DNA of 36,329 nt from a virus (IMGVR_UViG_3300017766_004476:76413-112741); one strand, 5' to 3'. Counted from the first letter of the stretch, positions 5,402 through 29,431 are shown. Numbers and translations are program-made. The notes: a model not told the origin generated them from the letters alone.

Positions 5402-7126
5402 TTATGAGGTGTAGACATCCCAGAGCCTGATATATTTGGTAATACCATTAACGGTTATCTGTAAGAATTCACCGTTAGTGACCATTGATCCTGAGACTAA
5501 TGTAGTATTAGTTAGGTTTATGTTTGCTGCAGAAAGATTAGTAATTTTTGCACCAACAGATTGAATGCCTTGAATAGATGAGTTATAAGTAGTATTAGGC
5601 ATACCCCCAAACGCACCATTATCATTAAACTGTAATTCGAGATTATTACCACCAGGCACTGTACTTCCGCTTCCTCCTGATATAACGGTAGTAGTATTAG
5701 GAGCTCCCGAACCACCACCAGAATCAGAAGCACGAGCAATTTGCTGTCTTAACCGATTTACATTCTTATCAACATACTGCTGTAAGTCTTTAAAGATTTG
5801 ATCAGAATCCTTTTGCGGTAAGCTCTTTGATCCGTTTACTTTCTTTTCAACAACTAAAGAAGATATTTGATTATCAAGGTTTGACTTTAAAAGATTAACA
5901 CACTCATTTATGATTGTATTAATGCGTTGTTCAGAACTCTTAATTAGCCCATCAACCTTTAGAGTAACTGTATTGTCTAGTTGGTTGAATTTATCAGTAA
6001 TACGTGATTCAAGATATAGGTTACATTCATTTTGAATGTGAGGTATTGAGATCTCATTTACTTGTGTGGTAAGTAGTGTTACTTGAGATGAAATATCTTG
6101 CTTAAGGATAAATACTTGTTCATCAATGTGCTGAGAAATCTCATCATTTAATTCATCAAATTGCTGATTAAGTGGTTGTGATAATCCTGTGAAAAGGTTT
6201 GTAGAAAGAGTCTCTATATTAGATGAAACCTTTTCATCGACACTATAAAGCATCTGATGTAAAATTTCATCACGAGCCTCATTTAAAGTCGTAATACTAC
6301 CATCAGTAAATTCTTCTACAATTTGCTGAACTCTCTCAGTCAACTCTTGCTGTGATTTTTCTGCATTATGAGCTATCGTAGTAGTTGTAGTGAGTGCTTC
6401 CTGGGTAAGAGAGTCTTTAAATTGTGCAAACTCTTTTAAAAGATTTGACTTTAACGAATCAGTACTCTGCTTAAAGAGCTCCTTATTATTCTGGTCGATG
6501 GTCTTTAAAAAGTTATCTACAGCAGTAGATTTGTAATTCTCAAATACATTATTAAGATCGACTTTAAACTTTTCTGACTCCTGTATAATTTTTTGAGTAA
6601 CTGAGAAATACTCCTGTAAGAGTGTAGATTTATATTCCTGGAGATCACTCTCTATTATTTGTGAATCTCGAGACTCTAACTCTTCTTCCTTCTCAACAAG
6701 TTGATTCTTAAGCTCTTGACACTCTTTAATTAATTCAACCTTTTCAACATCTGGTTGAATTTCAGGCACTGAAACTACTGGTGCAGGAGGTGGAGGAATT
6801 ACTGCTTCTTCAACTAATACGGGAGGTAAATTAGTAATAGAGTACAATGAGGTATTAGCTGATCTCTCATTAAAGAATACTCCCCAATCTTCTGAATTTT
6901 CAGAAACTACAACTTTAAAGGTATACTCCTTTAAACGATCATCTATCTCAACCGGAAGCTTAATAAACATCTGCTCCTTTTTAGTGAAATATTCACCAAA
7001 TAGAACGCTCTCATTTATTGTTATTTCTGCATGGAGAAGTTCAGTACGTATAGATGGTACAATAATAACATTCTCTTTAGAAGATATTACTGGTACTGAA
7101 ATATTATTAATGCGTATTGAACTCAT
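5402..7126 (-). CDS. long coiled-coil protein with a Gly-rich linker and C-terminal QFND motif (virion-associated)
   Basis: E/Q/K/L-rich helical core; GGNNLELQFNDNGAFGG is a motif type seen in phage fibre proteins. Confidence 0.6.
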   Translation of the reverse strand: MSSIRINNISVPVISSKENVIIVPSIRTELLHAEITINESVLFGEYFTKKEQMFIKLPVEIDDRLKEYTFKVVVSENSEDWGVFFNERSANTSLYSITNLPPVLVEEAVIPPPPAPVVSVPEIQPDVEKVELIKECQELKNQLVEKEEELESRDSQIIESDLQEYKSTLLQEYFSVTQKIIQESEKFKVDLNNVFENYKSTAVDNFLKTIDQNNKELFKQSTDSLKSNLLKEFAQFKDSLTQEALTTTTTIAHNAEKSQQELTERVQQIVEEFTDGSITTLNEARDEILHQMLYSVDEKVSSNIETLSTNLFTGLSQPLNQQFDELNDEISQHIDEQVFILKQDISSQVTLLTTQVNEISIPHIQNECNLYLESRITDKFNQLDNTVTLKVDGLIKSSEQRINTIINECVNLLKSNLDNQISSLVVEKKVNGSKSLPQKDSDQIFKDLQQYVDKNVNRLRQQIARASDSGGGSGAPNTTTVISGGSGSTVPGGNNLELQFNDNGAFGGMPNTTYNSSIQGIQSVGAKITNLSAANINLTNTTLVSGSMVTNGEFLQITVNGITKYIRLWDVYTS

Positions 7127-7151: not shown

Positions 7152-8474
7152 TTACGCAAACGGATATGTCTTACCAGATCCAGAATTATATAGGGTAACC
7201 ACTTCATTATAAGTGAGTGCTTTACCGAACCAAATACCTACTTCATCTAACATACCCCCTAAATATGCGATTTCAGTTTGATCTTTACCTATTATGAGGT
7301 CAGACGATCCTGAATTTATAGTAGAGTCGTTATATGCAACTGATTCAAACAAGCTTCCATTGACGGATATCTTTAAGAACCCATTCTCAAGGTCACATAC
7401 ACCTACTACAAAGTAACGAGTGTTAGATGAGAGAGGAATACTATAGGTTGCCTGAGAATAGGTACTTCCTGCAGGTGATACTAAGAATGCTACTTTACCC
7501 GTTGTCGTAAAGTCACTAATATAAAGAGAATAATCTCTATTTCCTGGTGCTGTAGACCATTTATTAATGATGCCTTGTATTGCTTGTGCGGAGGTTACAT
7601 TAAACCATGCTGCAACGCTCAGGCTTGCTGTATTAGGCTGAACTAGACTGCTATTAGGAGTCTTAATATAACGTGCCTGACTCCTGAGTAATGATAAACC
7701 AGTACCAACAACACCGGTAGTTGTGTCAATATCTCCATTGGTTGCAGTCATTGGAATATTATAAGTACTTGACACGCTTGAATTAAATGTTAACCCATTT
7801 GAACCTTCAAATGCATAGTACATTCTCAATCCATCAAGTAAGGTATTTTCATCAGCAATTGGATCAGTACCGCATGGTAATCTATAGAGAATATATGTAG
7901 GATTTGGATCACCATTTATATTACCTGAAAGACTATCATAGTCAGATACACCTGGAGTATCACTCAATCTTAATGAAATCTTTCCTCCGGTATGAGTAAT
8001 TGTATAATCCCAATCTCCATTAGTTACTGCATTTGCAGATGTGCTATAATTTAAGTTAGCAGGAATTTGAATATAATCAGCTCCATTGTTGTAATAGAGG
8101 AACATGTTAGTGTTTGCTGTCGCCCAGAGGTTAGTATCATATTGAAACGCACCACTGAGATATATTACTTTGTAAGTACCTGCATCTAAAGAAGTACCAC
8201 TATTAAAGTATGAAGTAATAGGTGACGTTACCGTAGTATAGGTTGCAGTTGATATGAATACTCGATCACAGCTTATAGGTGCTGCTGATAAAGTATAATC
8301 CTGCGGGTAATTTTCACCATTGGCATTTTGAGTTGATGAACGCGTAGGGCGCTTAGGTAGAGTTATGGAAGGAATAGATCTCTCGGATATATAAATCTGC
8401 TCAAGGGACGGAGAATTACCTACTGCTACCTTAACACCCGACCGTCCTGCATAATAATCATCAAATAAAGCCAT
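7152..8474 (-). CDS. LamG/concanavalin A-like jellyroll domain protein (virion/adhesion)
   Basis: C-terminal SVAAWF...YFVVGV...ISVNG...LIIGKD...GMLDEVGIWFGKALTYNEVVTLYN is a typical LamG signature. Confidence 0.8.
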   Translation of the reverse strand: MALFDDYYAGRSGVKVAVGNSPSLEQIYISERSIPSITLPKRPTRSSTQNANGENYPQDYTLSAAPISCDRVFISTATYTTVTSPITSYFNSGTSLDAGTYKVIYLSGAFQYDTNLWATANTNMFLYYNNGADYIQIPANLNYSTSANAVTNGDWDYTITHTGGKISLRLSDTPGVSDYDSLSGNINGDPNPTYILYRLPCGTDPIADENTLLDGLRMYYAFEGSNGLTFNSSVSSTYNIPMTATNGDIDTTTGVVGTGLSLLRSQARYIKTPNSSLVQPNTASLSVAAWFNVTSAQAIQGIINKWSTAPGNRDYSLYISDFTTTGKVAFLVSPAGSTYSQATYSIPLSSNTRYFVVGVCDLENGFLKISVNGSLFESVAYNDSTINSGSSDLIIGKDQTEIAYLGGMLDEVGIWFGKALTYNEVVTLYNSGSGKTYPFA

Positions 8475-8543: not shown

Positions 8544-9158
8544 TTAGAGATACAAGAAGTGCTTCCAATCAGGATGCTTTACTTCTTTAAAGCGCGCGCA
8601 TGCAGGAATAGGTAAAGGCGCTCTAGGTTTTCTAATTAACTTCAATCCTACTTCGTGATTGTACCTATTACCCTTTTTAGTATTAACATCTTTATGACAT
8701 AATACCAGATTCTCGAAGGTATCTTTACCTCCTTTATCTCGAGGAATAACATGGTCAAGATTACCTGTTGCCTTAGTGAGAGGGACGTTGGTGTATTGAC
8801 AAATACCTCCATCTCGTTCCCAAATACGTTTATTAGTGACGCTGACCTTCATCTGTGGCATTCTATTGAAGTTACAGCATACCGTAATTGTAGGTACTCG
8901 AATCTGCTGACGCGCAGATTGAATATATAGATGATGCTCTTCAACAGGTAAAGTAATCCACTCTTCCCAAGTACATGCATTAAACTGTGGATCTCGATCA
9001 AAATCAATAGATCCATCGTCTTTCCGCAGATAGGTAATGCTCACCGGCTTTACTGAGCCTCTCCAAATATCATTGAGAGCTTCAGCTACAGTACATGAGT
9101 CAATAGCCTGCCATGCTGCATTTAGCTTTAATGTTACTTTGCGGTTTAAGATGTTCAT
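8544..9158 (-). CDS. HNH endonuclease (McrA-like)
   Basis: IWERDGGICQY...NLDHVIPRDKGGKDTFENLVLCHKDVNTKKGN. Confidence 0.85.
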   Translation of the reverse strand: MNILNRKVTLKLNAAWQAIDSCTVAEALNDIWRGSVKPVSITYLRKDDGSIDFDRDPQFNACTWEEWITLPVEEHHLYIQSARQQIRVPTITVCCNFNRMPQMKVSVTNKRIWERDGGICQYTNVPLTKATGNLDHVIPRDKGGKDTFENLVLCHKDVNTKKGNRYNHEVGLKLIRKPRAPLPIPACARFKEVKHPDWKHFLYL

Positions 9159-11064: not shown

Positions 11065-11143
11065 TGGTGCTCAAGATAGGATTCGAACCTACATTTATCC
11101 ACTTACGGTTAGACTGTTTAGGAAACAGTACCGATACAAGAGC
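11065..11143 (-). tRNA. D-armless tRNA-like gene (nominal anticodon CCT) with a long variable region
   Basis: Canonical T arm GTAGG-TTCGAAT-CCTAT, encoded ACCA, stem-loop ACTGT-TTCCTAA-ACAGT; acceptor stem has two T-T mismatches; only 7 nt between acceptor and anticodon stems. Confidence 0.5.
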
Positions 11144-13246: not shown

Positions 13247-13669
13247 TTATCTTGAATAGCAAATGCACGTTTCAGGTAACCAACTCTTACAATGGTGACA
13301 CCATACATCATTCTCTTCCGACCATTTGTAGAATGGTGTGGAGTTCTCGTAGAGATTATATTGTTGCGTTTTAGTTCTCAATTCCCACTCAACATAAGTT
13401 TCACCGTCACGCATTTCAAACTCTGATACTTTGTGAGGTGGGTCTTCAACTATTGTAGTAAAGATCTCTACATGAACATCACCAGCATGATATACTGACT
13501 TAAAGCCCGGCTGAAAGTTCGGAGGTATATAGCTTACAACAAATCCTATCGATTTTGCATAATCAAGAGCCTGCTGTGAGTCAGTAAAGACTTTAATCTG
13601 CTCATTGAAGGGAGCAAAGTCCATATTCTTCGATTTATTAAAGACAATATATACAACTGAATTACTCAT
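13247..13669 (-). CDS. hypothetical protein
   Basis: 140 aa with C-terminal CHHC..C.C. Confidence 0.6.
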   Translation of the reverse strand: MSNSVVYIVFNKSKNMDFAPFNEQIKVFTDSQQALDYAKSIGFVVSYIPPNFQPGFKSVYHAGDVHVEIFTTIVEDPPHKVSEFEMRDGETYVEWELRTKTQQYNLYENSTPFYKWSEENDVWCHHCKSWLPETCICYSR

Positions 13670-13785
13670 ACACGTTTATTAGTTTTTAATTTCTGATCTG
13701 AGTTTATTCTCATCTAGTCGTCCTTTGCTGTAGCCTATGTTGTAAGAGCACGGAATACAGACAAGTAGTAGTGCAATGATACCAA

Positions 13786-15069
13786 TCATAATTGATATCC
13801 TCCGGTTTTCTTATTCAAATAGAAGTTACGATTGATAAATTCAATAACCTCTTGAGGATCGATATCTTTACTAAACACAATGTTAGGTCCATGCTGATCA
13901 AGCATTACAGCTTTAAGGTTACCAAATTGTTTCAACCCATCGCTCGTGTTTTTACCGCATTGATGACTCCCGCACTCCACCTCACGTTGAGACCTAATCG
14001 GAATCTCATCAGGATGATTCTCTCTCAATGGACAGTGAAAGTGTACAATACAATCCATACCGGGATGATCTCTGAATACAATTCTCTGAGACTGTCCCCC
14101 TACAGAAGGCTTTGCTCCATATGCAATAACCGTATCAGGCCCATCAGTCTTTACATACACCATTCCCGTATTCATGATGTCGTTAAAGTTGCTTTTTCTG
14201 ATGCTGGTTAAGAATTCAGTATCAGACAATTTGACTGCAAAGTGCCCTACCGTTGCATTTGCAAAAGGTTTATAAGCATTACCGCGAATGCAATGCTCTA
14301 CTACTGCCTTTACTGAAGCAGGAATTCTCTCATCGGACCATTTAACTGGTTTACCCTCAACGACCGTCGATTGGGTGAAGGTAAGATGACTCCGATAATA
14401 AGCCATATCAACCAGATTCTCTAATACTTCTACTCTATTATTAGTTTCGTGATATGCTGCTTCTTCAGGAGTGACAATCATATTCCATCTCGTCTTAGTG
14501 TCGTTGACTAAAACTAAGTTAACTGAGCCTTCTTTGCAGAGTCTCAGACCCTTCTCAAACATTTCCTGCTTAGATGCACCGCAAGTAGTCTTAAATCCAA
14601 CAAGGAAGATGTCTTTACGACCCTCACGTATATAAGGAATAATCTTCTTCGATTTACCAATCCAAAGATTTACCTCTTCAGTTTGATGAGTATCGAGACG
14701 GGGTTCATATTTCCCGAATTTATCGAGCTCTATATCATCATCATTATCTACAGGTATATGAGCCTCTGTAGGTTCCCAATCTACTAATGCACAGTTAAAG
14801 AATATAATCTTCGTGTTCAGATCTGCCTTAAGGAGTTCAACTCTCTTTAAAACATCTTCGTTTGTCTCAAGAGGAGGACCATAAAATGATACTTCACGTC
14901 CAGACATCTTTGTAAGATGAAGGCAAACATCCATTTCAGAAAATCGCTTTGATGCAAACCTATACAATAATCCTGCAGTTGTACCATATGCAGGTGCACA
15001 GAGAGCTAGATGATTAGCAATGTGTGCAATCGTACCACCACCGAAAATGTGAATCTTTTTGACGTTCAT
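13786..15069 (-). CDS. divergent CoaB/DFP (phosphopantothenate-cysteine ligase-like) domain fused to a class II aldolase/adducin domain
   Basis: N-half: FGGGT..HI, FNCALVDW, LVGFKTT, NLVLVND follow the CoaB pattern. C-half: GHFAV..SD.EFLTS, KPS, IVHFH, QHG follow the class II aldolase pattern with three Zn-ligand His. Confidence 0.7.
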   Translation of the reverse strand: MNVKKIHIFGGGTIAHIANHLALCAPAYGTTAGLLYRFASKRFSEMDVCLHLTKMSGREVSFYGPPLETNEDVLKRVELLKADLNTKIIFFNCALVDWEPTEAHIPVDNDDDIELDKFGKYEPRLDTHQTEEVNLWIGKSKKIIPYIREGRKDIFLVGFKTTCGASKQEMFEKGLRLCKEGSVNLVLVNDTKTRWNMIVTPEEAAYHETNNRVEVLENLVDMAYYRSHLTFTQSTVVEGKPVKWSDERIPASVKAVVEHCIRGNAYKPFANATVGHFAVKLSDTEFLTSIRKSNFNDIMNTGMVYVKTDGPDTVIAYGAKPSVGGQSQRIVFRDHPGMDCIVHFHCPLRENHPDEIPIRSQREVECGSHQCGKNTSDGLKQFGNLKAVMLDQHGPNIVFSKDIDPQEVIEFINRNFYLNKKTGGYQL

Positions 15070-15108
15070 ATTACAATGATATAATATTCGCTTATCTAGT
15101 TAATGCTC

Positions 15109-16278
15109 TTACATTCTCTGACAAACATTTCGCTTTGATACATACAAATGCATACAAATTCGTTCATAGTCCGGATCTCTGTAATACTCACCTTCTTGAA
15201 ACGTATTACTATATTCATAGAGTTGACCGCATCCAGCTTGAGAGATGCTCTGATTAATTTGAGCCCGTTTTGATACTGTTGAGAGTTGAGACTCAAAACG
15301 CTTATCGATTTGATGTTGAGTATATCCCCGCTTTTTGAGACGCTCAACCTGTAACTCGGGGCTGGTAGTAATCAGAATTATGTTATTATTACAGATTGGT
15401 AACATATTTGCCTCTACTAAGAGGGCACCATTTAATAAAATAATCTGATTATAGAGAGCTTGTGTTTGAATAGTTTTCCGAACTCGAGTAAGTATCGGTA
15501 TTCTCATTAAATCATTAAGGTGAGTTAGTTCATCCTTATTATTAAATACAACTTCTCCTAATTCTTTACGGTCAATAGTAATACCATCAAGACCTCCGGT
15601 AAGCATAAAGTCTTTAATTATCTTACGGCGCAATTCAATATACACCTCTTCTGTGCGAGTGTGTAGAATATCATAGGCAACTTTATCAAGATCGAGATTA
15701 TATGCACTAAGACGTTCAGCAGAGTAGTAAGAATTACAAAGTTTATCAGTTATGTATGATTTACCAGATCCAATAGTACCAGTAACTCCATAAATGTCTT
15801 TATGCCAAATCTTTCTCTCTAATTCACGCTTAACTAAAAGAGGTACATATTCATCTACAAATCCAAAGTTTTCACACACTGCTTTTGCTGCACTTGAGCT
15901 TACATGATTAAGCCCTGGTTTTGCGAAGATAGTAAAGGTCTCAATACCTCTTTGCTGGGTAGCCCCTACTTCATGAAGAAGCCTCTCATAGTCATAATCC
16001 TGAGGATTGCGAATCCCTTTAATAATGACTTTACTTCCTAATTCATAAACATAGTCTGCAAGTAATCCTGAAAATGTATCAACTATAACATTAGGAATGT
16101 TTTGAGTACATTTCTTAATCATCTGAATCCGCTCTTCTTCAGTAAAGAGATACTTCTTAGATGAATTCTTACCTACTGCAATTACTACTTTATCGAACAT
16201 TTCAGATGCACGTCTAATAACATCTAAATGTCCCAGTGTGAAGGGATCAAAGCTGCCGGGGTATACGCAAGTTTTCAT
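15109..16278 (-). CDS. coaD-coaE: bifunctional phosphopantetheine adenylyltransferase / dephospho-CoA kinase
   Basis: YPGSFDPFTLGHLDVI, KGIRNPQDYDYE and VSSS (CoaD); GVTGTIGSGKS, DLDKVAYDIL, IDRKELGEVVF, QVERL..R and SQL (CoaE). Confidence 0.9.
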   Translation of the reverse strand: MKTCVYPGSFDPFTLGHLDVIRRASEMFDKVVIAVGKNSSKKYLFTEEERIQMIKKCTQNIPNVIVDTFSGLLADYVYELGSKVIIKGIRNPQDYDYERLLHEVGATQQRGIETFTIFAKPGLNHVSSSAAKAVCENFGFVDEYVPLLVKRELERKIWHKDIYGVTGTIGSGKSYITDKLCNSYYSAERLSAYNLDLDKVAYDILHTRTEEVYIELRRKIIKDFMLTGGLDGITIDRKELGEVVFNNKDELTHLNDLMRIPILTRVRKTIQTQALYNQIILLNGALLVEANMLPICNNNIILITTSPELQVERLKKRGYTQHQIDKRFESQLSTVSKRAQINQSISQAGCGQLYEYSNTFQEGEYYRDPDYERICMHLYVSKRNVCQRM

Positions 16279-16511
16279 TTATCTCCTCTAAAAAATTTAT
16301 CAACCTTCTCTTTGTGGATATCATATATGTCTGCTATCAAATTAATTATTACAGGTATAAGTATTGCAGGGCCTAAAATGCTAATTGCTAATGCATCAGA
16401 AATACCACACTTACCCATCGACTTAATATTACACCTGTTTATTATAAAGATAATAATTACCCCAGATATATACCACAGTATAAGTATCCCAATAAAGCTG
16501 ATAAAGTTCAT
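16275..16511 (-). CDS. small membrane protein
   Basis: Two hydrophobic helices; 4-nt overlap with the start of coaD-coaE. Confidence 0.6.
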   Translation of the reverse strand: MNFISFIGILILWYISGVIIIFIINRCNIKSMGKCGISDALAISILGPAILIPVIINLIADIYDIHKEKVDKFFRGDK

Positions 16512-16513
16512 AA

Positions 16514-17107
16514 TTAAATTGTATCTAATTCGTATTGAATGTTGATTCGAGCTTGATCTTCAAAATCAGTTAAAATAGAGAATAATTTAGGACGAGCTAA
16601 AGCTTGCTGAAGAAACGCTATCCTTCCTTTATTAAACTCCTTATTCGCTATATGTACCCATTCTCTGCGAATTGCAGCACGGTAGAGAGAATATGCGCTG
16701 GGTGATGAGCCTAAAATTGCTAAATCTAAATCACACATTGCATTAGATACTTCATTCTCTGTAGGTAAATGGTGCTGAGTTGCAAGAATAATTTCAGTAA
16801 CAGCATCTATATCTTTTGGAGACACTCCAATTATAGAGAGATCTAATGCTGCACGATGAGCGCTCAACTCTTCATTAACTCTATATCCTGGATTGTCTGT
16901 TGAATACACAAAGTCATGATACCAGATAGCCCATCTGAGAATAGGAGTATTTAACTCCTTCAGCTTAGGATGAGTATAGAGGATATCAAAGCAATTGTTA
17001 AGGTGCTGGATATTGTGATATGGTCGATTAACCATGCTCATTTTCTCAATGAGATTTATGAACAAGTTAGAATGCATCCACTTTTTATACTGCTGACTAA
17101 TACTCAT
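16514..17107 (-). CDS. HD-superfamily metal-dependent phosphohydrolase (COG4339-like)
   Basis: RPYHNIQH, AIWYHDFVY, NEELSA, ILATQHH, DLDLAILG, IRREW, GR..FL. Confidence 0.85.
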   Translation of the reverse strand: MSISQQYKKWMHSNLFINLIEKMSMVNRPYHNIQHLNNCFDILYTHPKLKELNTPILRWAIWYHDFVYSTDNPGYRVNEELSAHRAALDLSIIGVSPKDIDAVTEIILATQHHLPTENEVSNAMCDLDLAILGSSPSAYSLYRAAIRREWVHIANKEFNKGRIAFLQQALARPKLFSILTDFEDQARINIQYELDTI

Positions 17108-17400
17108 AATTCAATTCGATTTAATTTTATAAGCTTTTCTAGTTGAATCAAACTTTTATTCGCGAATGCTCCCATCTTTCCGGTATGAATACTATGTAAA
17201 TAATTACACACTGTACTTATATGAACCCTATCTGCACTATCACCTTTAAGGGTGGCGATGCCGCTAATTATCTCTTCTTCAGACCTGTATCCAAACCTGA
17301 TATCATTCGCTTTATTAATAGGTAATGATGTAGTGTCATAGACATATCTTACACAGCGATTAATTTCCTCTCGAGGAATGCCATATATAGATTGACTCAT
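17104..17400 (-). CDS. hypothetical protein
   Basis: 98-aa ORF packed between the Thg1-like and HD genes. Confidence 0.6.
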   Translation of the reverse strand: MSQSIYGIPREEINRCVRYVYDTTSLPINKANDIRFGYRSEEEIISGIATLKGDSADRVHISTVCNYLHSIHTGKMGAFANKSLIQLEKLIKLNRIEL

Positions 17401-17401
17401 A

Positions 17402-18232
17402 TTAAGGTGTATAGTTAGGAATCATTAAGAGTAATTGATCTTTGTTTTCAGTAAACTTCCATGCAGGCCATGATATCCATCTCGTTCTTGCAGGTGGTGC
17501 GATGTTTGTAGGTGTTATTTCGTCTAAATCAAAAAATTTCTCTTTGATAATCAACCGACCATTCTTCAAACTTGGATCATACTCAGCCCAATTGATTCCC
17601 TTCTGAAAAATCAACTTTTGCAATTCAGTGGAATTCTTAGATTGTAATTCTTTGTGACTATAGAGACTCTGAGCGACCATAGAAACAGAATTACGGGCGC
17701 AATCTTGATTTCTCCAAATAAAGTAGTTCATCACTTCAGTACGGTCAGGAATGGTGAATACACGGGAATCGAACGCAGCCGGACGAAACTCTTCTACTCC
17801 CACCACTTGCCCGTCTGAAAATGTATGTAAATCCGATTCAGATAATGCCTTGGAATACTCTTTAACCCAAGTCTTGAACCTGTATTGGTTAAACTCAGCA
17901 GTCATCAAACTTGCTGACACAGAACAGATTTTCTGAATATTACCATCAAACCATGCATCTGTATTCTCCTTTTCAAAATCCGTTAAAAGGATAGAAATTT
18001 CATCGCTTTGGACATATGCGAATACTGCTCCTTGAATTTGAGGAAGGATTGCTTTTACAGCATCGTCTAAATCATCAATCAATTCTTTATCAAATGGTTT
18101 TTTCAACCCTCTTGTGTAAGTGTGAAAAGCTTTACCGTCTAAGCGTATGATGGTATAGGTTCTACGGGGTAGTGAATAGCGAGTGCGGCTCTCGTATTGA
18201 GCCTTCATTCTATCTCCAAGTGTATCTTTCAT
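17402..18232 (-). CDS. thg1: tRNA(His) guanylyltransferase Thg1-like protein (3'-5' polymerase)
   Basis: LGDRMK.YE, IRLDGKAFHTYT, YVQSDEISILL, WFDGNIQKI.S, FDSRVF, YFIWRNQD..RNS. Confidence 0.92.
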   Translation of the reverse strand: MKDTLGDRMKAQYESRTRYSLPRRTYTIIRLDGKAFHTYTRGLKKPFDKELIDDLDDAVKAILPQIQGAVFAYVQSDEISILLTDFEKENTDAWFDGNIQKICSVSASLMTAEFNQYRFKTWVKEYSKALSESDLHTFSDGQVVGVEEFRPAAFDSRVFTIPDRTEVMNYFIWRNQDCARNSVSMVAQSLYSHKELQSKNSTELQKLIFQKGINWAEYDPSLKNGRLIIKEKFFDLDEITPTNIAPPARTRWISWPAWKFTENKDQLLLMIPNYTP

Positions 18233-18252
18233 ATCAATTTAAATATTCCAAT

Positions 18253-18510
18253 CTAAGATGTTAACAGTTCTACAAAGAGATACGTAATAGTGAAGAGCAT
18301 CAAAATTAAGGCTCCTACGCAGAGCCAGCAAAAGTATCCCATAAATTTCGCAGCTTTTTCTCTCAATTGTTCAGTTGGTGTAATGTTTAAATTAAATTTT
18401 TTAAATAATTCACCTGGGGTTACTTCTTTTTTATTTTCATCGTTAAAAGCTTCTTCAAGTTGTTTTACTAATTCAGCTTTAGATTTTTTTGATTCAGGGT
18501 GTATTAGCAT
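18253..18510 (-). CDS. small membrane-anchored protein
   Basis: C-terminal hydrophobic helix. Confidence 0.6.
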   Translation of the reverse strand: MLIHPESKKSKAELVKQLEEAFNDENKKEVTPGELFKKFNLNITPTEQLREKAAKFMGYFCWLCVGALILMLFTITYLFVELLTS

Positions 18511-18514
18511 AATA

Positions 18515-19150
18515 TTAAATTGGGTAAATTCGTTTAAGTAACCTCATGAGGTAGTCATGAGTCATAAGCTGATACATTCCACTATCATCAAACTTAGTCA
18601 AGTCTGTATTAGAATAGCAAATTGGTTGATATTCTGAATCTTCTTTACCTTCGTAGACTACCCATGCTGCAGTTTCATGAAGATTTACAAATACGGTATG
18701 GAGCTCCGATGCATCTAGATGTATCCTTGAAGGGTTATATGCATAAACTCTGTCTACTGCAAATGCATATAAAGGCGCATCTCCGAGATACTCGAATTTG
18801 CATTCATTTTCTTTAATCTTTGACTTATAGAGATACTTTTTATATTGTCTACCTGTAAGATAGTGTTCTTCTTTGCTGGCTGTAAATTTTCTATTGTGAA
18901 TGCAGCCATGTATTACATCAATATCTAGTTCACAGTGATGAGGATGAATAGCAACTGAAAGTTCATCACTATCTCTATGATTTTTCCACAGCTCGTGATT
19001 TTCATGAGCAATAAACATTCTGATACGTGCACCCGGAGTGTCATCAAACAGAATAGAATCTACTCCTCGAGCATGACAATTTATCAGAGACTTCTGAAGC
19101 ATCACGTCAAGGTTAGTCTTGAGAAAATGTTTAACTAGGTTTAAGTGCAT
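18515..19150 (-). CDS. hypothetical protein, possibly a cupin-like metal-binding fold
   Basis: CH, HPHH and LHTV His clusters within beta-rich sequence. Confidence 0.5.
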   Translation of the reverse strand: MHLNLVKHFLKTNLDVMLQKSLINCHARGVDSILFDDTPGARIRMFIAHENHELWKNHRDSDELSVAIHPHHCELDIDVIHGCIHNRKFTASKEEHYLTGRQYKKYLYKSKIKENECKFEYLGDAPLYAFAVDRVYAYNPSRIHLDASELHTVFVNLHETAAWVVYEGKEDSEYQPICYSNTDLTKFDDSGMYQLMTHDYLMRLLKRIYPI

Positions 19151-19565
19151 TGAGCTTCTCTTTCACATAGGTGCTGATATATTTGACATCAATCCGAGTA
19201 TCATACTTCACCTTGATAAAATTAATAACTTTACCCATATCACGTGGTGATGCTGCGCCTGCTTCAACAATTGCCTGATCAACGATTTCAGGATACTTGT
19301 TGAGTTCAATCTTTTCAGGGAGAAGCCTTTCAAGAACTTCAATCATGAGATGTTCATTGTCGTGTGCGATTTTATTCTCAATCATCTCCTTGAGAACTTT
19401 AATTTCCTTTGCAGTTATTGCTTGACATTCATCAAAGGTAAGTTCACGAGCTTCACGCCCTTCAACTGCTTGAATGGCAGAGAGGACATATTGATAGGCT
19501 TTAACTCGAGTGGGATTGCGATCCTTACGAGCATTCTGAATATGAGTAAGAAGTTGTGTCTTCAT
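19131..19565 (-). CDS. GatB/YqeY domain protein
   Basis: A.K.R....  pattern at the N-terminus, VLERLLP, EAGAASPRDMGKVI...K...D...S..VKEKL. Confidence 0.85.
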   Translation of the reverse strand: MKTQLLTHIQNARKDRNPTRVKAYQYVLSAIQAVEGREARELTFDECQAITAKEIKVLKEMIENKIAHDNEHLMIEVLERLLPEKIELNKYPEIVDQAIVEAGAASPRDMGKVINFIKVKYDTRIDVKYISTYVKEKLNALKPS

Positions 19566-20448: not shown

Positions 20449-20874
20449 TGGTGGACCCGGCGAGAGTTGAACTCGCGTGCTAAACTTAATTCTACCTTAC
20501 ATTGTACAAGCTTATTCTGTTATTATACAATCACTGACTAGAACAGACACCACCCAGTAATCGTTTCCTAAAATTGGATAGAAAGAAACCAAATTAGTAA
20601 AGTGTTTCTAGCTTTCTAATGTTACAAGATTTACTTTATTAGAATCAAGTAGTCCCGGCGAAACAGCACTAGGCCATTACGACTTGAGGTTGAGCAACGA
20701 ATGCGCCCTTGATGCTGCGGACGAATCCTGCAACAGAGTTTGCAACGGTGACACCTGCATTATTTGCATTTTTAGCATTTAATTTTTTACCACGAGAGTT
20801 TTAACGAGGCCAACGTAGTCTCCTCGGCTTGTGGTCACGATATAATTACCTTTAGTCGAAACCAGTACGAGCCC
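20449..20874 (-). ncRNA. ssrA: transfer-messenger RNA
   Basis: 5' GGGCTCGTACTGGTTTCGAC; 3' GCGAG-TTCAACT-CTCGC-CGGGTCC-ACCA; G3-U70 alanine determinant; internal tag frame 20669-20776 after AAAAAATTAAAT. Confidence 0.93.
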
Positions 20875-21644: not shown

Positions 21645-22500
21645 TCGGCGTGAGAATACCGCTTGTTAGTTAGGTCTTTTATTCGATTATTACCTCCTTG
21701 CGAGAGGCTTTCCGAACTTTTCCACGCTTCACAGCGTATCCTAACAGTGCTGCCTTTTTTAGAGTGAGGCTTTAACACTCTTCATCATAACACCTTCAAC
21801 CGTCATTCTACCGCCAACCTTGCGAGCTGTTCGAGGGAATTACCCCCTACGTGCGAACTCAGATTAATCATCTCAGACCTTGCGAGTCTTCGACAACCTC
21901 AGTTACCCTTGCGAGCCTAAGGCTTAAGCACCTTCATGCTATGATAGGAACCGGCTTTGCGTTTTTGCTATTAGATTAATACAATTTAATTTTTTTGCAC
22001 TATACAGTGATGTGCGATTCCCTGCGTTTCATAACCTTTTGGATTACAAAATGCGCAACACCACATAACTTTCCCTTACGGGTACTCATCGATACTTTGA
22101 AATTCAGGGTATTGTAAAGCAGCACCCCTCTTTTCGCGTAATGATCGTAAGCTCTTACTTGTTATCGTTCGAACCCACTATCTGTGCTTTAGTCTTTAAC
22201 TTGCGATGTTTGGCATAAACTAGTGTTCTCGGCGCTACCGTTAGAAGTCTTATGGCACCAGCGTTGCCCATGCCTTAAAACCGTTTCTAATTCCATCTTC
22301 GAGTATAGCTCAACCTTTTGAGTTAAACTTACAAGACTTACACTTTGTATAAATGTCCTATTCGTTAAATAGGCGCGGAACTGTATAGAGTTCACGCTTT
22401 AAATACCCTTACGGATATCTATCTTATCCCTTGCTAAGCTACCACCTACCAAGAAACCCTCCTGCGAGGTAAGGATGTCATACCACCCTTAATATTTGAC
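21645..22500 (-). ncRNA. large structured ncRNA, GOLLD-like (boundaries approximate)
   Basis: About 850 nt without a credible ORF, higher GC than the genes; four exact CTCGCAAGG GNRA-hairpin cores (21696, 21818, 21878, 21907) plus CCGTAAGG hairpins near 22075 and 22408; runs straight into tRNA-Trp. Confidence 0.6.
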
Positions 22501-24269: not shown

Positions 24270-24893
24270 TTAAAATGATGTTAGATGAGTACCTATAATT
24301 GCACCATCATAGCGCATTAGAACGTCTCGTTTATGTTTGATGTTTGATGCGAGATAAAGTTGTGGACGCTCTATATTTCTCCATTTTGTAAACAGTTCAT
24401 CTAGGGTAGTATATTCTACAGGATATTTGGATAAAAATAATTCAAAGAAGTCTGTTGTATTTCTGTTCTCTCCAGAGAGAAGGTTGCGTTGATTGATTAC
24501 CACAGCATCAACAGCACTAATAAGAGGCATTTTAAGATTTTCCTTAAACTCATCTAAAAAGAGCGGTTCATACCATACTTTACTAAGTGTAAGCCCTATA
24601 GGTACTCTTCCTACTGTTAATACATAATCTGCACCATACTCAGTAGCTTTCCAAAATTCCCAATCATTTAAGTGTAATCCTTTTGCAAGTATAGGCTTTT
24701 TTGTCTTTTTTCGAGCCTTTTCGAGCAATTTAAAGTCACCACCCCATATTGGGTTAGTATGTATCGAGATTATATCTCCCTTCTCTATAGCAATATCTAA
24801 AAGCTCATCAAATGACTTCTCACTCTTATATCCATAAGGTGACTGAGTCTTAACTTCTGCAATTAATTTGATACACTCGACGTAATTTTTCAT
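24270..24893 (-). CDS. TrpC-like (indole-3-glycerol phosphate synthase-like) TIM barrel, N-terminally shortened
   Basis: IAEVKTQSP, ISIHT, PILAK, GADYVL, WYEP, INQRNL, AIIG line up with the IGPS motifs. Confidence 0.7.
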   Translation of the reverse strand: MKNYVECIKLIAEVKTQSPYGYKSEKSFDELLDIAIEKGDIISIHTNPIWGGDFKLLEKARKKTKKPILAKGLHLNDWEFWKATEYGADYVLTVGRVPIGLTLSKVWYEPLFLDEFKENLKMPLISAVDAVVINQRNLLSGENRNTTDFFELFLSKYPVEYTTLDELFTKWRNIERPQLYLASNIKHKRDVLMRYDGAIIGTHLTSF

Positions 24894-24895: not shown

Positions 24896-25738
24896 TTAAC
24901 TATAGATTTCCCATTGTTGAGTGAACCCTGCAAAGCCATCACTCTTAGGATTAAAGAGTGTATAATTATCTCCATAATGATACAAGTACATTTTTTGTTT
25001 TAAATCATTAGGTAAAGTCTTAAGCTGATCATATGTTGCATGAACTGATCCCGGATTGAATAATTGAGTATCGTGGAACACTGCATCGAGATTCTTATTA
25101 CCCACATCATCAAAGAGACTTAAATCAAACCGTGTATCTCCGCTTACCATAATTCTACTATCAATTAACACTCCATTGCACCAGAATGATTTTTCCCAGC
25201 TCTCAGTAAATCCCGGAATGTGTGCAGTCCGGAAGATAGTCATCTGCATATCCATATCGAGAATATCAAATGTAAACATCTCACGCGGAGCTTTTTTAAC
25301 CCACTCAGGACGAATCACCTCAAAGTAATCAGTAAATTTGAGAAGACCTTCTTCAGTATATGCCATACTGCCTGCAAGAGAACTATCCCACAGCTGTCTC
25401 TGATATGTTTCAGTTATGAGCATCTTCGGCTTTGTTTTATGAACATAGCGTCCCATAAAGCCGAGTTCCTCAACTCCACCCATATGATCTGCATGGCTGT
25501 GGGTAATATGATAGTAGTCAAACTCATGCAATCCAATTCCCTTACTATGAAGAGCCATAGGAATTGTCGTACCTATATCTACTAGAAGAGATTTGCCATT
25601 CTTGCAGATGAAGAATGAGGATTGATTATTCTTCTTTGCAAAGGCTGAGCCTACACCAATAAAGGTGATATTCGGTTTCTTCTCATTCACTGAGAGTTGT
25701 TTTGCAAATGCAAGAGGGTTGCAGGTTGAGATATTCAT
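24896..25738 (-). CDS. metallo-beta-lactamase-fold phosphodiesterase, Apyc1 (anti-Pycsar)-like
   Basis: GVGSAFAKK, THSHADHMGGVEE, LWDSSL.G, DYF, GDTRFD, VFHDTQ, VHA, LYHYGDN. Confidence 0.75.
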   Translation of the reverse strand: MNISTCNPLAFAKQLSVNEKKPNITFIGVGSAFAKKNNQSSFFICKNGKSLLVDIGTTIPMALHSKGIGLHEFDYYHITHSHADHMGGVEELGFMGRYVHKTKPKMLITETYQRQLWDSSLAGSMAYTEEGLLKFTDYFEVIRPEWVKKAPREMFTFDILDMDMQMTIFRTAHIPGFTESWEKSFWCNGVLIDSRIMVSGDTRFDLSLFDDVGNKNLDAVFHDTQLFNPGSVHATYDQLKTLPNDLKQKMYLYHYGDNYTLFNPKSDGFAGFTQQWEIYS

Positions 25739-26802: not shown

Positions 26803-26878
26803 GGTACCCGAGAGAGGATTTGAACCTCTAACCGTTTCGTTCGTAGCGAAGTGCTCTATCCAGTTGAGCTACACGGGC
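26803..26878 (-). tRNA. tRNA-Arg(ACG)
   Basis: Full cloverleaf, loop CTACGAA, TTCAAAT T loop. Confidence 0.9.
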
Positions 26879-26885
26879 AATGTGT

Positions 26886-27239
26886 TTAATTTCCTTGTAA
26901 ATAACTATTTACTAACTCAATACCTTTAGTATTTGACCATTCTAATACTTCAGGAAAGCTGTTGAAGGTTTTTCCGATATTATATGCATTACCAGAATTA
27001 CCAATATCGAGATACCAAACGTATTTTTGAGTAAACTTATCTGCAAACAGAATATGAATTGTAGGCCAAGTAGTATTTTCGATATTTTTGCTATATACTT
27101 TACCATTTTCAAGCTGATAACCTAAATCGAGAAGTGTGGTATGCTCTTTATAGTCAAGAGCATGTCCATGCTTAAAGTATTGAAGTACTAATGCACTAAT
27201 ATTACTAACTTCATCCGCTATTGAAATAGACTTATCCAT
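26886..27239 (-). CDS. hypothetical protein
   Basis: 117-aa ORF between tRNA genes. Confidence 0.6.
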   Translation of the reverse strand: MDKSISIADEVSNISALVLQYFKHGHALDYKEHTTLLDLGYQLENGKVYSKNIENTTWPTIHILFADKFTQKYVWYLDIGNSGNAYNIGKTFNSFPEVLEWSNTKGIELVNSYLQGN

Positions 27240-27246
27240 ATTATTC

Positions 27247-27317
27247 GGTAGCTGCCCTGAGTTACGCTCTCAGCTCAAAATCCTTATGAGAGATTCCGGT
27301 TCACTAGAACTGCAGCC
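27247..27317 (-). tRNA. tRNA(CAT) (Met or Ile2), short D arm, overlapping the 3' end of the upstream CDS
   Basis: GGCTGC/GCAGCT acceptor, GTTC/GAAC D stem, AATCT-CTCATAA-GGATT, CTGAG-AGCGTAA-CTCAG, ACC end. Confidence 0.65.
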
Positions 27318-27815
27318 ATTCTGTTCATTATTATTTATGTAATTGAATAAATTGTAAACAGGTATTTTTAAAGATTCAGCAATCCGTATTGCTTGTCCCG
27401 TACCGCCTGATGCTTTACCATCTTTAGTATAGCATACTACAAACTTTACCGGAGTATTTAAATCTCTACCTAAAACTTGATAAACATTACGCGTATGCAG
27501 TTTACGTGCTGCATGAGTTAAATAGTTCCAATGTGGGTGATGTTGCTCTGCAATTTGTTCTGCATCAGCTACATTCCCTAGATTATCAAGATATAAGGAC
27601 GATGGATTTTTATTAAATCCTCTCCAAGGAAGGTAGATTTCTTTTAATCCAGCATGCTCTATACAGTGTGTTTCAAAAACTTTATCACATCCATCTGCAC
27701 CGCCTGATCTAAGCGTCCATCCTTTAGTTGCAAGTACCTTTGCGATACCTTCAATCATAATAAAGACCTTTTTGTGGTCAATATCACGAGTACCTATACC
27801 TGCATAATAGTTCAT
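27270..27815 (-). CDS. SLOG/DprA-like Rossmann-fold protein
   Basis: YAGIGTR, LRSGGADGCD, EIYLPW, RNVYQVLG, GGTGQAIRIA....IPVYNL. Confidence 0.8.
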   Translation of the reverse strand: MNYYAGIGTRDIDHKKVFIMIEGIAKVLATKGWTLRSGGADGCDKVFETHCIEHAGLKEIYLPWRGFNKNPSSLYLDNLGNVADAEQIAEQHHPHWNYLTHAARKLHTRNVYQVLGRDLNTPVKFVVCYTKDGKASGGTGQAIRIAESLKIPVYNLFNYINNNEQNGCSSSEPESLIRILS

Positions 27816-27816
27816 T

Positions 27817-28062
27817 TTAAAATGCTTCGAGTTTACCTACAGATGTTTTGACAATTTCATCAATAAATTCTTTAGAAAAGATGCATCCACAATTTGTTTT
27901 AATGAGGTTATTTTTTCTATCAATCTCAGTAATATTGAATATACGCTTTACAAGAGTGATTTTACCTTCATTAAACTCAGCACAATTAATAATAATCCGA
28001 TATACTAAGGGTTCAAAATTAAAGGTTGAGAACTTTTCATTGGTTGTGTTATTTTTAAACAT
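27817..28062 (-). CDS. hypothetical protein
   Basis: Start moved to MFKNN because the longer frame begins inside a tRNA. Confidence 0.5.
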   Translation of the reverse strand: MFKNNTTNEKFSTFNFEPLVYRIIINCAEFNEGKITLVKRIFNITEIDRKNNLIKTNCGCIFSKEFIDEIVKTSVGKLEAF

Positions 28063-28065
28063 ATC

Positions 28066-28142
28066 GGTGGGACTAGTGGGATTTGCACCCACACTGCCGA
28101 GCTTCTCAGACTCGTGACTCCTTCTAGTTGGTCTATAGTCCC
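28066..28142 (-). tRNA. tRNA-Leu(GAG), short variable loop
   Basis: GGGACTA/TAGTCCC, CGAGT-CTGAGAA-GCTCG, GTGGG-TGCAAAT-CCCAC. Confidence 0.8.
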
Positions 28143-28146
28143 ATTT

Positions 28147-29134: not shown

Positions 29135-29177
29135 AATCGTAATATAAATGTTCTCTCTCAGATTGCAATTTATTAAT

Positions 29178-29255
29178 TGGTACTTCCAGTGAGATTTGCA
29201 CTCACACATCCATGTTTTTGAGACAAGTGACTCCTGCTAATTGGTCTATGGAAGC
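29178..29255 (-). tRNA. tRNA-Leu(CAA), short variable loop
   Basis: GCTTCCA/TGGAAGT, loop CTCAAAA, ACCA end. Confidence 0.8.
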
Positions 29256-29293
29256 ATCGACGGGATTTCACTATTGTTCCACCTATTCTTCTT

Positions 29294-29364: not shown

Positions 29365-29431
29365 GTATACAAATAGAATGTCTATCCTATATTCTATTAT
29401 GCAGATAGCAAGTCTGCTGTGTAGAATACTT

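Follow-up and report, generated by a model that had tools for sequence, protein, structure and literature searches.

In phages and in CPR bacteria, the gene for an HD-superfamily hydrolase is linked to the genes for CoaD and CoaE, the enzymes of the last two steps of coenzyme A (CoA) synthesis, and this linkage is the new result of the present analysis. The sequence examined was a stretch of 36,329 nucleotides, referred to here as the window, from a viral IMG/VR record of 112,741 bp that is 65% complete by CheckV. Our preferred reading, to which we assign a probability of roughly one half, is that the HD protein and a CoaD-CoaE fusion are one inherited unit that both runs and supports the final two CoA steps inside the infected cell.

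Four open reading frames were found at positions 13786-17107 of the window, all co-oriented on the minus strand and tightly spaced:

16514..17107, minus strand: HD-like hydrolase (P0001), 197 aa
16275..16511, minus strand: putative small hydrophobic ORF with two helices (P0002), 78 aa
15109..16278, minus strand: predicted CoaD-CoaE fusion (P0003), 389 aa
15805..16278, minus strand: CoaD (phosphopantetheine adenylyltransferase, PPAT) domain of P0003, residues 1-158
15109..15801, minus strand: CoaE (dephospho-CoA kinase, DPCK) domain of P0003, residues 160-350, plus a C-terminal tail of about 40 aa
13786..15069, minus strand: CoaB-like/aldolase protein (P0004), 427 aa, with a ligase-like domain at residues 1-230 and a class II aldolase-fold metal domain at residues 245-420

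A gap of 2 nt separates the stop codon of the HD gene from the ATG of the small ORF, the end of which is joined to the start of the CoaD-CoaE gene by an ATGA overlap that is preceded by GAGGAG. A 39-nt spacer, in which no terminator-like site was found, lies between the CoaD-CoaE gene and the CoaB-like gene. The earlier note on this DNA had described four co-oriented, closely spaced genes, and the reading frames, their strand, and the three junctions agree with that description. The phage record also encodes 15 tRNAs, a tmRNA, a GOLLD RNA, and an Apyc1 homologue, and contains one match to a virion-protein PHROG. The Apyc1 (anti-Pycsar) homologue is located within the window, as are Thg1-like and YqeY genes, and NAMPT and Nudix-type NAD salvage genes are encoded by the same phage. 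In relatives, CoaDE is found near genes for NADAR, NAMPT, a CCA-adding enzyme, PTH2, and RNA/DNA ligase.

The P0003 protein is a bona fide CoaD-CoaE fusion that is predicted to cover the last two CoA steps. Its CoaD domain scored 160.4 bits against TIGR01510 over residues 3-156 (equivalog cut-off 103.3), and its CoaE domain scored 89.3 bits against TIGR00152 (equivalog cut-off 65.55) and matched PF01121 at 2.5e-22, so that the fusion proposed earlier is upheld by both equivalog models. The CoaD domain matched 34 solved PPATs with E values from 1e-21 to 1e-34, and the CoaE domain matched four solved DPCKs (2if2, 2grj, 4zo4, and 1jjv). The HxGH motif of CoaD and the P-loop of CoaE, which had been described as intact, both fall on columns that are invariant in 42 homologues. 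The PPAT motif PGSFDP..LGH is located at residues 7-17 and the SSS motif, in the form VSSS, at residues 126-129; the invariant columns of the CoaD domain are S9, D11, P12, G16, H17, K41, R90, D94, E98, S127, and S128, and the residues of the PPAT motifs presumably have the roles that are assigned from established PPAT structures. In the CoaE domain, the P-loop GTIGSGKS occupies residues 167-174, and G167, G172, and K173 are invariant among the 42 homologues, as is Asp198 of the LDLD sequence, the Asp after strand 2.

More than 230 fused CoaD-CoaE homologues were found, some of them named in Gracilibacteria, Pacebacteria, and Woesearchaeota, and more than 100 such fusions show 40-56% identity to P0003. 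The family is large and is common to phage contigs, CPR bacteria, and DPANN archaea, and because it is common in the latter two groups, the fusion is not rare in prokaryotes. When CPR MAGs were searched with P0003, the sole CoaD/CoaE match was the same CoaD-CoaE fusion.

As judged from family searches and a structural model, the HD protein belongs to an HD-superfamily phosphohydrolase family that is barely covered by Pfam and that has a predicted PDE-like fold. It gave no match at E 0.1 or better against Pfam and NCBIfam, and it matched phrog_19425, annotated as a phosphohydrolase, at 2e-26. The family has 9250 representative relatives. The HD signature H..H...HD...D is present (H31, H35, H64, D65, D126, and D128) and is invariant in 60 relatives, just 4 of which gave a weak match to the Pfam HD model PF01966. 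The family profile matched the structure of E. coli YedJ at 1e-6. The AF2 model (pLDDT 95) has a confident, all-helical fold of the HD/PDE type, for which the nearest solved folds were the catalytic domains of class I PDEs (Z 13-14 over about 190 of the 197 residues), followed by YpgQ (Z 11.5), a nucleotide pyrophosphohydrolase, and YedJ (Z 10.2). The previous identification of this protein as an HD hydrolase is in line with the PHROG match, the signature residues, and the modelled fold. With respect to YqeK, no NCBIfam match was obtained at E 0.1, and the solved YqeK structures scored Z 6.2-6.5, far under the PDEs. The AcpH model PF04336 (ACP_PD) had no match in the HD protein or in the whole phage record, while a control search found the AcpH of E. 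coli, and the 30 best Swiss-Prot fold matches of the HD protein did not include AcpH.

Of 80 IMG/VR CoaD loci, 16 (12 distinct) have the HD gene next to CoaD or CoaD-CoaE or fused with it, whereas a single one of 80 control loci has an HD gene at a distance of 10 kb or less (Fisher p = 1.3e-4; 9e-4 with duplicates collapsed). The HD gene is absent nearby in the majority of the viral CoaD loci (64/80). In all 16 linked loci, the HD gene overlaps CoaD(E), shares its ORF, or is located at most 116 bp away, and four architectures were observed: HD-CoaDE; CoaDE-HD; CoaD-HD in a single ORF; and CoaD, HD, and CoaE in a row. In the closest phage contigs, the HD gene overlaps the start of CoaD-CoaE. 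Both fusion orders are found in bacterial chromosomes, CoaD-HD (P0299) and HD-CoaD (P0327), and the two proteins are true CoaD since each scored 139 bits against TIGR01510, over the cut-off. Triple fusions of CoaD, CoaE, and HD include P0087, P0096, P0113, and P0122; such fusions occur in Gracilibacteria and Absconditabacterales, and a 593-aa code-25 ORF of an Absconditabacterales MAG has this triple arrangement. Atlas clusters contained 105 members with CoaD and HD and 63 members with CoaD, CoaE, and HD, and the HD signature residues were retained in every fused form.

Because the HD gene is adjacent to CoaD(E) and occurs in double and triple fusions with it, the HD protein, the PPAT, and the DPCK constitute a real functional unit, and the gene arrangements show the HD protein to be a dedicated partner of CoaD/CoaE. 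This linkage is stronger than the earlier note had seen, and since it is genuine, it is reasonable to suggest that the HD protein acts in that pathway too, one way being the release of 4'-phosphopantetheine. The HD gene was never located within 1.5 kb of coaD or coaE in 16 sampled Pseudomonadota, where the main function of the HD family may be wider or of another kind. Other fusion partners of the family include GNAT, DUF7079, DUF4031, and DUF1653.

The small ORF between the HD and CoaD-CoaE genes encodes two hydrophobic helices and had no match in Pfam or PHROG. The reading frame that had been taken for a small membrane protein gene does read through; the protein itself is putative, as no homologue was found in related loci, where the HD gene directly overlaps the start of CoaD-CoaE. 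It appears to be a lineage-specific putative membrane ORF.

Co-occurrence of the three enzyme genes in phages and MAGs, which had been proposed as a check, held for HD and CoaD-CoaE but not for the CoaB-like/aldolase gene. The P0004 family was found within 10 kb of 0 of 80 viral CoaD loci and anywhere in 1 of 20 whole viral records that bear a CoaD unit, and it was missing even from such records of 89-98% completeness. Starting from the P0004 family, CoaD was located within 10 kb in 1 of 80 viral loci and 0 of 11 genome loci. P0004 thus adjoins the conserved HD-CoaD-CoaE unit and lies outside it; it is an enzyme in its own right that is widespread among phages and CPR bacteria, and a chance neighbour in this phage. 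Overall, what the earlier note had observed was confirmed, and its interpretation is supported for the CoaD-CoaE fusion and its link to the HD gene but not for the membership of the CoaB-like/aldolase gene in a CoA module.

At the level of fold, P0004 is predicted to be composed of a CoaB-fold NTP-dependent ligase-like domain and a class II aldolase-fold domain. The N-terminal domain superimposed on S. pneumoniae CoaB (2gk4) with VIA Z 22.0 and an rmsd of 3.1 over 203 residues (Foldseek 5e-14) and on five other CoaB/PPCS structures with Z 17-20, and the nucleotide-site motifs GGT, A..DY.P, GFK, and (V/A)ND are kept. The C-terminal domain scored 27.4 bits against Aldolase_II PF00596 (cut-off 22.2) and matched the class II aldolase structures 1pvt, 2fk5, 2opi, and 1gt7 (Z 11-12, about 160 residues); H343, H345, and H393 (HxH and a third His) are invariant in 49 homologues and are probably Zn ligands. 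A weak match to OtnC and a structural match to 2z7b were also obtained, and the family includes 3457 homologues at 64-71% identity. The folds and the PF00596 match therefore support the CoaB-like/aldolase identity given earlier, but the CoaB models do not: P0004 scored under every cut-off (PF04127, 16.8 bits against 22; NF005231, 25 against 265; TIGR02114, 19.7 against 217; TIGR00521, 15.2 against 219.7). In a profile alignment, TNHSTG of 2gk4 aligned with CAPAYG of the P0004 family, so that the NxS(S/T)G motif of CoaB is not kept; the conserved Asn of this motif (N210 in E. coli) is needed for the cysteine-transfer half reaction. P0004 was rejected as a true CoaB because it fails the model cut-offs and does not have this Asn motif. 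No match to the CoaC flavoprotein (PF02441) was found in P0004, and the TIGR00521 match covers model positions 290-353 alone, in the CoaB half.

From family membership and intact motifs, the CoaD domain is predicted to adenylylate 4'-phosphopantetheine to dephospho-CoA and the CoaE domain to phosphorylate dephospho-CoA to CoA. In the preferred reading, the HD protein would be a metal-dependent phosphodiesterase or diphosphatase acting in the CoA pathway. Its substrate is probably a small molecule, as its modelled fold is close to the PDEs and YpgQ, and as the Absconditabacterales triple-fusion MAG, which may be incomplete, yielded neither a PP-binding carrier nor a PPTase. Most likely, it would cleave wrong, damaged, or spent CoA-type dinucleotides to 4'-phosphopantetheine, which would then be re-used by the fusion enzyme. 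Dephospho-CoA analogues built with the wrong NTP would be one such substrate, by analogy with YqeK, which is fused to or clustered with NadD and hydrolyses the mis-made dinucleotides NaCD and NaUD (PMC9426524). Because of the missing YqeK model match and the low Z scores, this precedent is an analogy and not a family-level homology. Canonical CoaBC, pantothenate kinase (including type III PanK), ACP, PPTase, and AcpH were not found in the phage record, and since the record is about 65% complete, the upstream CoA genes are reported as not found rather than absent. As no earlier CoA step was found in the 112 kb, the phage would tap host phosphopantetheine and thereby sustain or enlarge the CoA pool while it infects the cell.

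Several other roles were weighed against this one. The unit could be a cofactor-recovery pathway in which a CoA-derived conjugate is cleaved to 4'-phosphopantetheine by a previously undescribed HD step, after which CoA is rebuilt by the fusion, although we regard this as unlikely. The conjugate could have been modified by a defence, damaged, or imported. Such a pathway would be the phage CoA counterpart of NARP, implying host immune effectors that target CoA, and would give CPR bacteria a route to CoA without any early pathway. A counter-defence role like that of NARP for NAD, in which a host immune effector destroys or modifies CoA and the cofactor is restored by CoaD-CoaE once the HD protein has cut the product back to 4'-phosphopantetheine, is considered quite improbable. 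It is consistent with the location of the unit in an auxiliary/counter-defence region alongside the Apyc1 homologue, with the NAD salvage genes of the same phage, with the NADAR, NAMPT, CCA-adding enzyme, and RNA ligase genes near CoaDE in relatives, and with the presence of the last CoA steps alone, which suits rebuilding from a breakdown product. However, no report of a defence that depletes CoA emerged from our literature search, and CPR and other bacteria carry HD-CoaD(E) on their chromosomes, in some cases as a triple fusion, and there it resembles a housekeeping function. It is also quite unlikely that the HD protein resembles AcpH and cuts 4'-phosphopantetheine off holo-ACP or another carrier for CoaD-CoaE to convert to CoA, so that host fatty-acid synthesis would be halted and the CoA pool supplied at the same time. 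AcpH, too, is a phosphodiesterase of the HD family, although an atypical one, and it releases the substrate of CoaD; the HD protein of the phage has phosphodiesterases as its nearest folds, and HD-CoaD fusion fits product-to-substrate channelling. References on the turnover of the ACP prosthetic group are among those given in PMC8721197. The substrate holo-ACP, put forward in the earlier note, is nevertheless weakened by the lack of any AcpH match to the model or among the 30 best Swiss-Prot folds and by the carrier and PPTase that were not found in the triple-fusion MAG. In addition, the HD gene and AcpH occurred together in 3 of 151 Pseudomonadota genomes compared to 2.1 expected, which is the chance rate, and therefore there is no sign that one replaces the other.

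The possibility that P0004 replaces both CoaB and CoaC, as a ligase and a non-flavin decarboxylase, to give four of the five CoA steps or a CoA analogue, is judged very unlikely. The class II aldolase family includes decarboxylases, and the OtnC and 2z7b matches, the CoaB fold with its nucleotide-site motifs, the short spacer without a terminator-like site, and the failure to find canonical CoaBC in four CPR MAGs with the P0004 family all point in this direction. These observations are opposed by the failed cut-offs, the altered Asn motif, and the separation of the P0004 family from CoaD described above, by the pantothenate kinase that was not found in the phage record, and by Sphingomonas, in which the P0004 family is present alongside canonical CoaBC. 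We give least credence, and very little, to a role in RNA metabolism, in which the enzymes would, for example, make or remove dephospho-CoA caps, or would repair tRNA as a set made up of a kinase, a nucleotidyltransferase, and a phosphoesterase. The RNA-centred neighbours in the window (Thg1-like, YqeY, tmRNA, GOLLD, and 15 tRNAs) and in relatives (CCA-adding enzyme, PTH2, and RNA/DNA ligase) would fit such a role, but these neighbourhoods are generic for early/auxiliary regions of large phages, both P0003 domains score above cofactor-enzyme equivalog cut-offs, and a P0003-type fusion is the only CoaD/CoaE match in the searched CPR MAGs.

Among known systems, CoaB/PPCS is similar to P0004 alone, with which it shares the fold and the nucleotide-site motifs; P0004 differs in its sub-threshold scores, in CAPAYG at the position of the Asn motif, in a partner domain that has the class II aldolase fold instead of the CoaC flavoprotein of CoaBC, and in a family that is unlinked to CoA genes in phages. 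AcpH is similar to the HD protein in superfamily, in size (about 190-200 aa), and in a product that CoaD uses, whereas the HD protein has neither a match to the AcpH sequence model nor phyletic complementarity with AcpH, and its family occurs in a genome without a detectable carrier protein. In NadD-YqeK, as in the present unit, a (T/H)xGH-superfamily adenylyltransferase is clustered with or fused to an HD-superfamily hydrolase, which in that case removes mis-made dinucleotides, but the cofactor pathway and the HD family are different. NARP1 and NARP2 are similar in that late steps of cofactor synthesis are encoded in a phage auxiliary region, and NAMPT and Nudix genes are present in the same phage; unlike the case of NAD+, we know of no defence that consumes CoA. 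The coaD and coaE genes are abundant viral AMGs, alongside NAMPT and nadM (PMC11097641), and an HD partner is not described in the reports on these AMGs or on NARP. The bifunctional PPAT-DPCK enzymes, animal COASY and the CPR/DPANN fusions, have the same two domains as P0003 in the same order on one polypeptide. P0003 differs in being phage-encoded, and its CoaD domain is of the bacterial type (TIGR01510) and not of the eukaryotic PPAT type. No HD hydrolase partner is known for COASY, whereas P0003 is accompanied by one and is fused to it in relatives.

The four co-oriented genes that the earlier note had grouped into one cluster were found to be real open reading frames. They lie on the minus strand, which carries nearly all of the genes in the window:

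16514-17107, minus strand: HD-like hydrolase P0001 (197 aa)
16275-16511, minus strand: P0002, a 78-aa ORF with two hydrophobic helices
15109-16278, minus strand: CoaD-CoaE fusion P0003 (389 aa)
13786-15069, minus strand: CoaB-like/aldolase fusion P0004 (427 aa)

The four genes are tightly packed: the HD gene and P0002 are 2 nt apart, the start of P0003 shows an ATGA overlap and a GAGGAG ribosome site, and a 39-nt spacer lies 5′ of P0004. A scan of positions 13400-18600 returned promoter-like and terminator-like sites in numbers no greater than those in shuffled sequences, and no terminator-like site between P0003 and P0004. The remaining annotated features of the window are as follows:

7152-8474, minus strand: 440-aa protein with a C-terminal Laminin_G_3 lectin-like domain
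8544-9158, minus strand: HNH endonuclease, adjoining the gene for the Laminin_G_3 protein
17402-18232, minus strand: Thg1-like tRNA-His guanylyltransferase (phrog_4717 at 1e-76)
19131-19565, minus strand: YqeY-like protein
20449-20874, minus strand: tmRNA (RF00023; 122 bits, gathering score 47)
21647-22064, minus strand: full-length GOLLD RNA (RF02032, model positions 1-416; 184.7 bits, gathering score 150)
24270-24893, minus strand: 207-aa protein with a borderline IGPS match (PF00218)
24896-25738, minus strand: Apyc1 (anti-Pycsar protein) homologue, matching PF23023 with 132.6 bits (cut-off 50)
26805-35731, minus strand: array of 15 tRNA genes among small ORFs

The source record in IMG/VR is 112,741 bp long, with a completeness of 65% by CheckV, and the window forms its final 36 kb. 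No match to the region was found by Megablast in the phage collection. The earlier note had allowed that the genes might come from a host chromosome rather than a phage. The record is instead viral, as indicated by the tRNA, tmRNA and GOLLD RNA genes, the Apyc1 homologue, a match to a virion-protein PHROG, and relatives located on viral contigs of 54-304 kb. The phage-encoded tmRNA was also called by ARAGORN, with a 32-residue tag. The GOLLD RNA is placed between the tmRNA and an AAA ATPase gene, the Thg1-like and YqeY-like genes are found a short way upstream of the HD gene, and a borderline tRNA match was seen at 11068-11143. Two large ORFs (1965-4208 and 5402-7126) had no PHROG match and no convincing family match; the sole Pfam match of the latter, Apolipoprotein, was far below its cut-off. 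Apyc1 is a known type of counter-defence gene. In two related contigs (L006 and L007), a homologue of the 207-aa IGPS-like protein is encoded directly downstream of CoaD-CoaE. The CoA unit therefore has a second neighbour, which is lineage-limited. The whole phage record also contains, at 64356-65777 and 66206-67153 and thus beyond the window, NAMPT-like and Nudix-type genes that correspond to NAMPT and NUDIX in the related phage locus L008; the present phage therefore carries NAD salvage as well.

The assignment of P0003 as a fusion of CoaD (PPAT) and CoaE (dephospho-CoA kinase) was confirmed. Both halves scored above the NCBIfam equivalog cut-offs (TIGR01510, 160 bits against 103; TIGR00152, 89 bits against 65.6), and the protein matched 34 solved PPATs and four solved dephospho-CoA kinases. 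In an alignment of 42 homologues, the HxGH-type and SSS motifs of the PPAT and the P-loop and Asp of the kinase were invariant columns. More than 230 homologues were found, with the same two-domain architecture in 116 of the best 120; some are named as Gracilibacteria, Pacebacteria or Woesearchaeota, and the nearest relatives (50-56% identity) are on viral contigs. Judged from sequence, the fusion type is already known and not rare, and P0003 is a further member of it. An earlier study (PMC11097641) reported coaD and coaE to be abundant among the auxiliary genes of viruses, and coaD is annotated in cultivable phages of Brevundimonas, Caulobacter and Campylobacter and in Myxococcus phage Mx1. 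Canonical CoaBC, type III pantothenate kinase, a carrier protein, a PPTase and AcpH were not found in the 112-kb phage record; as far as these 112 kb show, the phage encodes only the last two steps of CoA synthesis.

The linkage of the HD gene was scanned using HMMs built from our own alignments on 80 IMG/VR loci that had been found by a CoaD-CoaE profile, each taken with 10 kb of flank. In 16 of these loci (12 distinct), a member of the HD family was located next to the CoaD gene or within it, and the two always overlapped, shared an ORF, or were separated by 116 bp or less. In 80 control loci of similar size, one HD gene occurred within 10 kb (Fisher p = 1.3e-4; 9e-4 with duplicates collapsed). 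Four architectures were observed in the viral loci: HD followed by CoaD-CoaE, CoaD-CoaE followed by HD, CoaD-HD as a single ORF, and CoaD, HD and CoaE in a row. Fusions are not confined to viruses. Three of the long relatives within the best 150 HD matches are CoaD-HD fusions, in both domain orders, whose CoaD part passes or approaches the CoaD equivalog cut-off; for two of the three, the surroundings are those of an ordinary bacterial chromosome. CoaD-CoaE-HD triple fusions were seen in four proteins of 583-598 aa, two of them named Gracilibacteria by NCBI. In an Absconditabacterales MAG (L022, 814-2595, minus strand), all three domains form one ORF of 593 aa under code 25, which requires 14 TGA codons to be read as Gly; under code 11 the gene appears as fragments. 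Independently, the ESM Atlas listed a 105-member CoaD+HD cluster and a 63-member CoaD+CoaE+HD cluster among the nearest structures, and the HD signature residues are retained in each of these forms.

This combination of fusion and neighbourhood is evidence of the classic kind, and it indicates that the HD enzyme probably works in the same pathway as CoaD and CoaE. The partnership proposed in the earlier note was upheld, and it appears to be undescribed so far; a literature search for HD-CoaD fusions returned nothing on point. A predicted complex of the CoaD domain with the HD protein scored 0.09 against a mark of 0.32 and was counted neither for nor against the partnership. The HD family may have a remit wider than CoA, since no coaD or coaE was located within 1.5 kb of the HD gene in 16 sampled Pseudomonadota, and since GNAT, DUF4031, DUF1653 and DUF7079 also occur as fusion partners. 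A further ESM Atlas cluster, from ciliates (Ciliophora; 538 aa, 232 members), joins a cytidylyltransferase-like domain to a P0001-like structure (TM 0.85 by query), which suggests that the pairing of a nucleotidyltransferase with an HD protein may extend to eukaryotes.

P0001 itself matched no Pfam or NCBIfam model. Its family, which may correspond to COG4339 (a literature search on this name gave nothing on point), comprises 9250 clusters at 50% identity and has the invariant signature H31, H35, H64-D65 and D126/D128. The predicted structure is all-helical and confident (pLDDT 95). The nearest solved folds are the catalytic domains of class I cyclic-nucleotide phosphodiesterases (Z 13-14, with about 190 of the 197 residues covered), followed by the uncharacterised HD hydrolase 2pq7, by YpgQ at Z 11.5 and by YedJ of E. 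coli at Z 10.2. Foldseek searches of the model against PDB and the Swiss-Prot AFDB gave generic phosphodiesterase matches only, at E values of 4e-3 or weaker, and AcpH was not in the top 30 Swiss-Prot rows.

The inclusion of P0004 in the same module was not supported. P0004 is a genuine two-domain protein: residues 2-230 have a CoaB fold (Z 22.0 to 2gk4; Foldseek 5e-14), and residues 245-420 have a class II aldolase fold (Z of about 12) with H343, H345 and H393 invariant. As a CoaB it was rejected on the tests applied, being below the cut-off of every CoaB model and having, in a profile alignment, CAPAYG opposite the CoaB TNHSTG motif. The family is very large and highly conserved (3457 matches; 64-71% identity in the best 120). 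No member was located within 10 kb of CoaD in the 80 viral CoaD loci, and among 20 viral records that carry the CoaD unit and were taken whole, only one had a member anywhere, records 89-98% complete being among those that lack it. Conversely, in 80 viral P0004 loci, CoaD was within 10 kb in one and an HD gene in one; neither was within that distance of P0004 in 11 genome loci. Clustering of the neighbours in the 80 viral P0004 loci revealed no conserved partner, the top families (HNH endonuclease and ADP-ribosylglycohydrolase) occurring in 13 and others being ligases, Thg1 and HD_4. In two related phages, one of 206 kb, P0004 is 6.5 kb and 20 kb, respectively, from CoaD-CoaE, and Caulobacter phage CcrSC has the CoaB-like half only, with no gene for the aldolase half beside it. 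Pseudomonas phages of the phiPsa374 type likewise have just the N-terminal domain. The failure to find canonical CoaBC in four CPR MAGs carrying the P0004 family favours the earlier reading; in Sphingomonas, the P0004 family and canonical CoaBC are both present. P0004 homologues on contigs L012 and L021, binned as Peribacteria and Absconditabacterales, have identical scores, and another copy comes from a contig of 171 kb assigned to a Methanobacterium bin. Some of the 'cellular' copies may be phage contigs that were mis-binned into MAGs. A literature search for CoaB/aldolase fusions gave nothing on point. Judged by these neighbourhoods, P0004 is a separate, very widespread enzyme outside the CoA unit. 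To read a module into its position next to CoaD-CoaE is a tempting over-reading, and the protein merits a study of its own. Of the earlier interpretation, the CoaD-CoaE fusion and its HD partner stand, and the membership of P0004 does not.

CoA synthesis is treated in textbooks as a closed pathway of five steps. The linkage described here ties an HD family of more than 9000 sequence clusters, which has no Pfam model of its own, to the last two enzymes of that pathway, through adjacency and through double and triple fusions in phages, CPR bacteria and ordinary bacteria. It predicts that an accessory step is missing from this picture, be it proofreading, recycling or the release of a precursor. 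It also bears on how CoA is maintained in the smallest bacteria, in which the early steps are missing, and on why large phages carry coaD and coaE, auxiliary genes that are seen in viromes.

The logic of fusion suggests that a product or substrate of the HD enzyme would be shared with CoaD, and 4′-phosphopantetheine is the obvious candidate. The earlier note had offered holo-ACP as its source, with the HD protein acting like AcpH to free the 4′-phosphopantetheine arm. No support was found for this: the AcpH model matched neither P0001 nor anything in the phage record, and among 151 Pseudomonadota the HD family and AcpH showed no phyletic complementarity and co-occurred at the chance rate (three genomes with both against 2.1 expected). 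A carrier protein and PPTase were also undetected in a CPR genome with the triple fusion, with the incompleteness of MAGs as a caveat. It is conceivable but rather unlikely that the unit rebuilds CoA as a counter-defence, in the manner of NARP. The location of the unit in an auxiliary region with the Apyc1 homologue, and the NAD salvage genes of the same phage, make such a role conceivable; against it, no report of a defence that depletes or consumes CoA was found in the literature, and in CPR and other bacteria the unit has a housekeeping-like character.

We favour, with modest confidence, a role in which the HD enzyme would be a small-molecule diphosphatase or phosphodiesterase that recycles wrong, damaged or spent CoA-type dinucleotides to 4′-phosphopantetheine. 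This role is drawn by analogy with YqeK, and the YqeK and P0001 families are not close (Z 6.2-6.5). The experimental precedent comes from a sister pathway, where NadD, an adenylyltransferase related to CoaD, likewise has an HD partner: YqeK is fused or clustered with NadD and hydrolyses the products that NadD mis-makes (PMC9426524).
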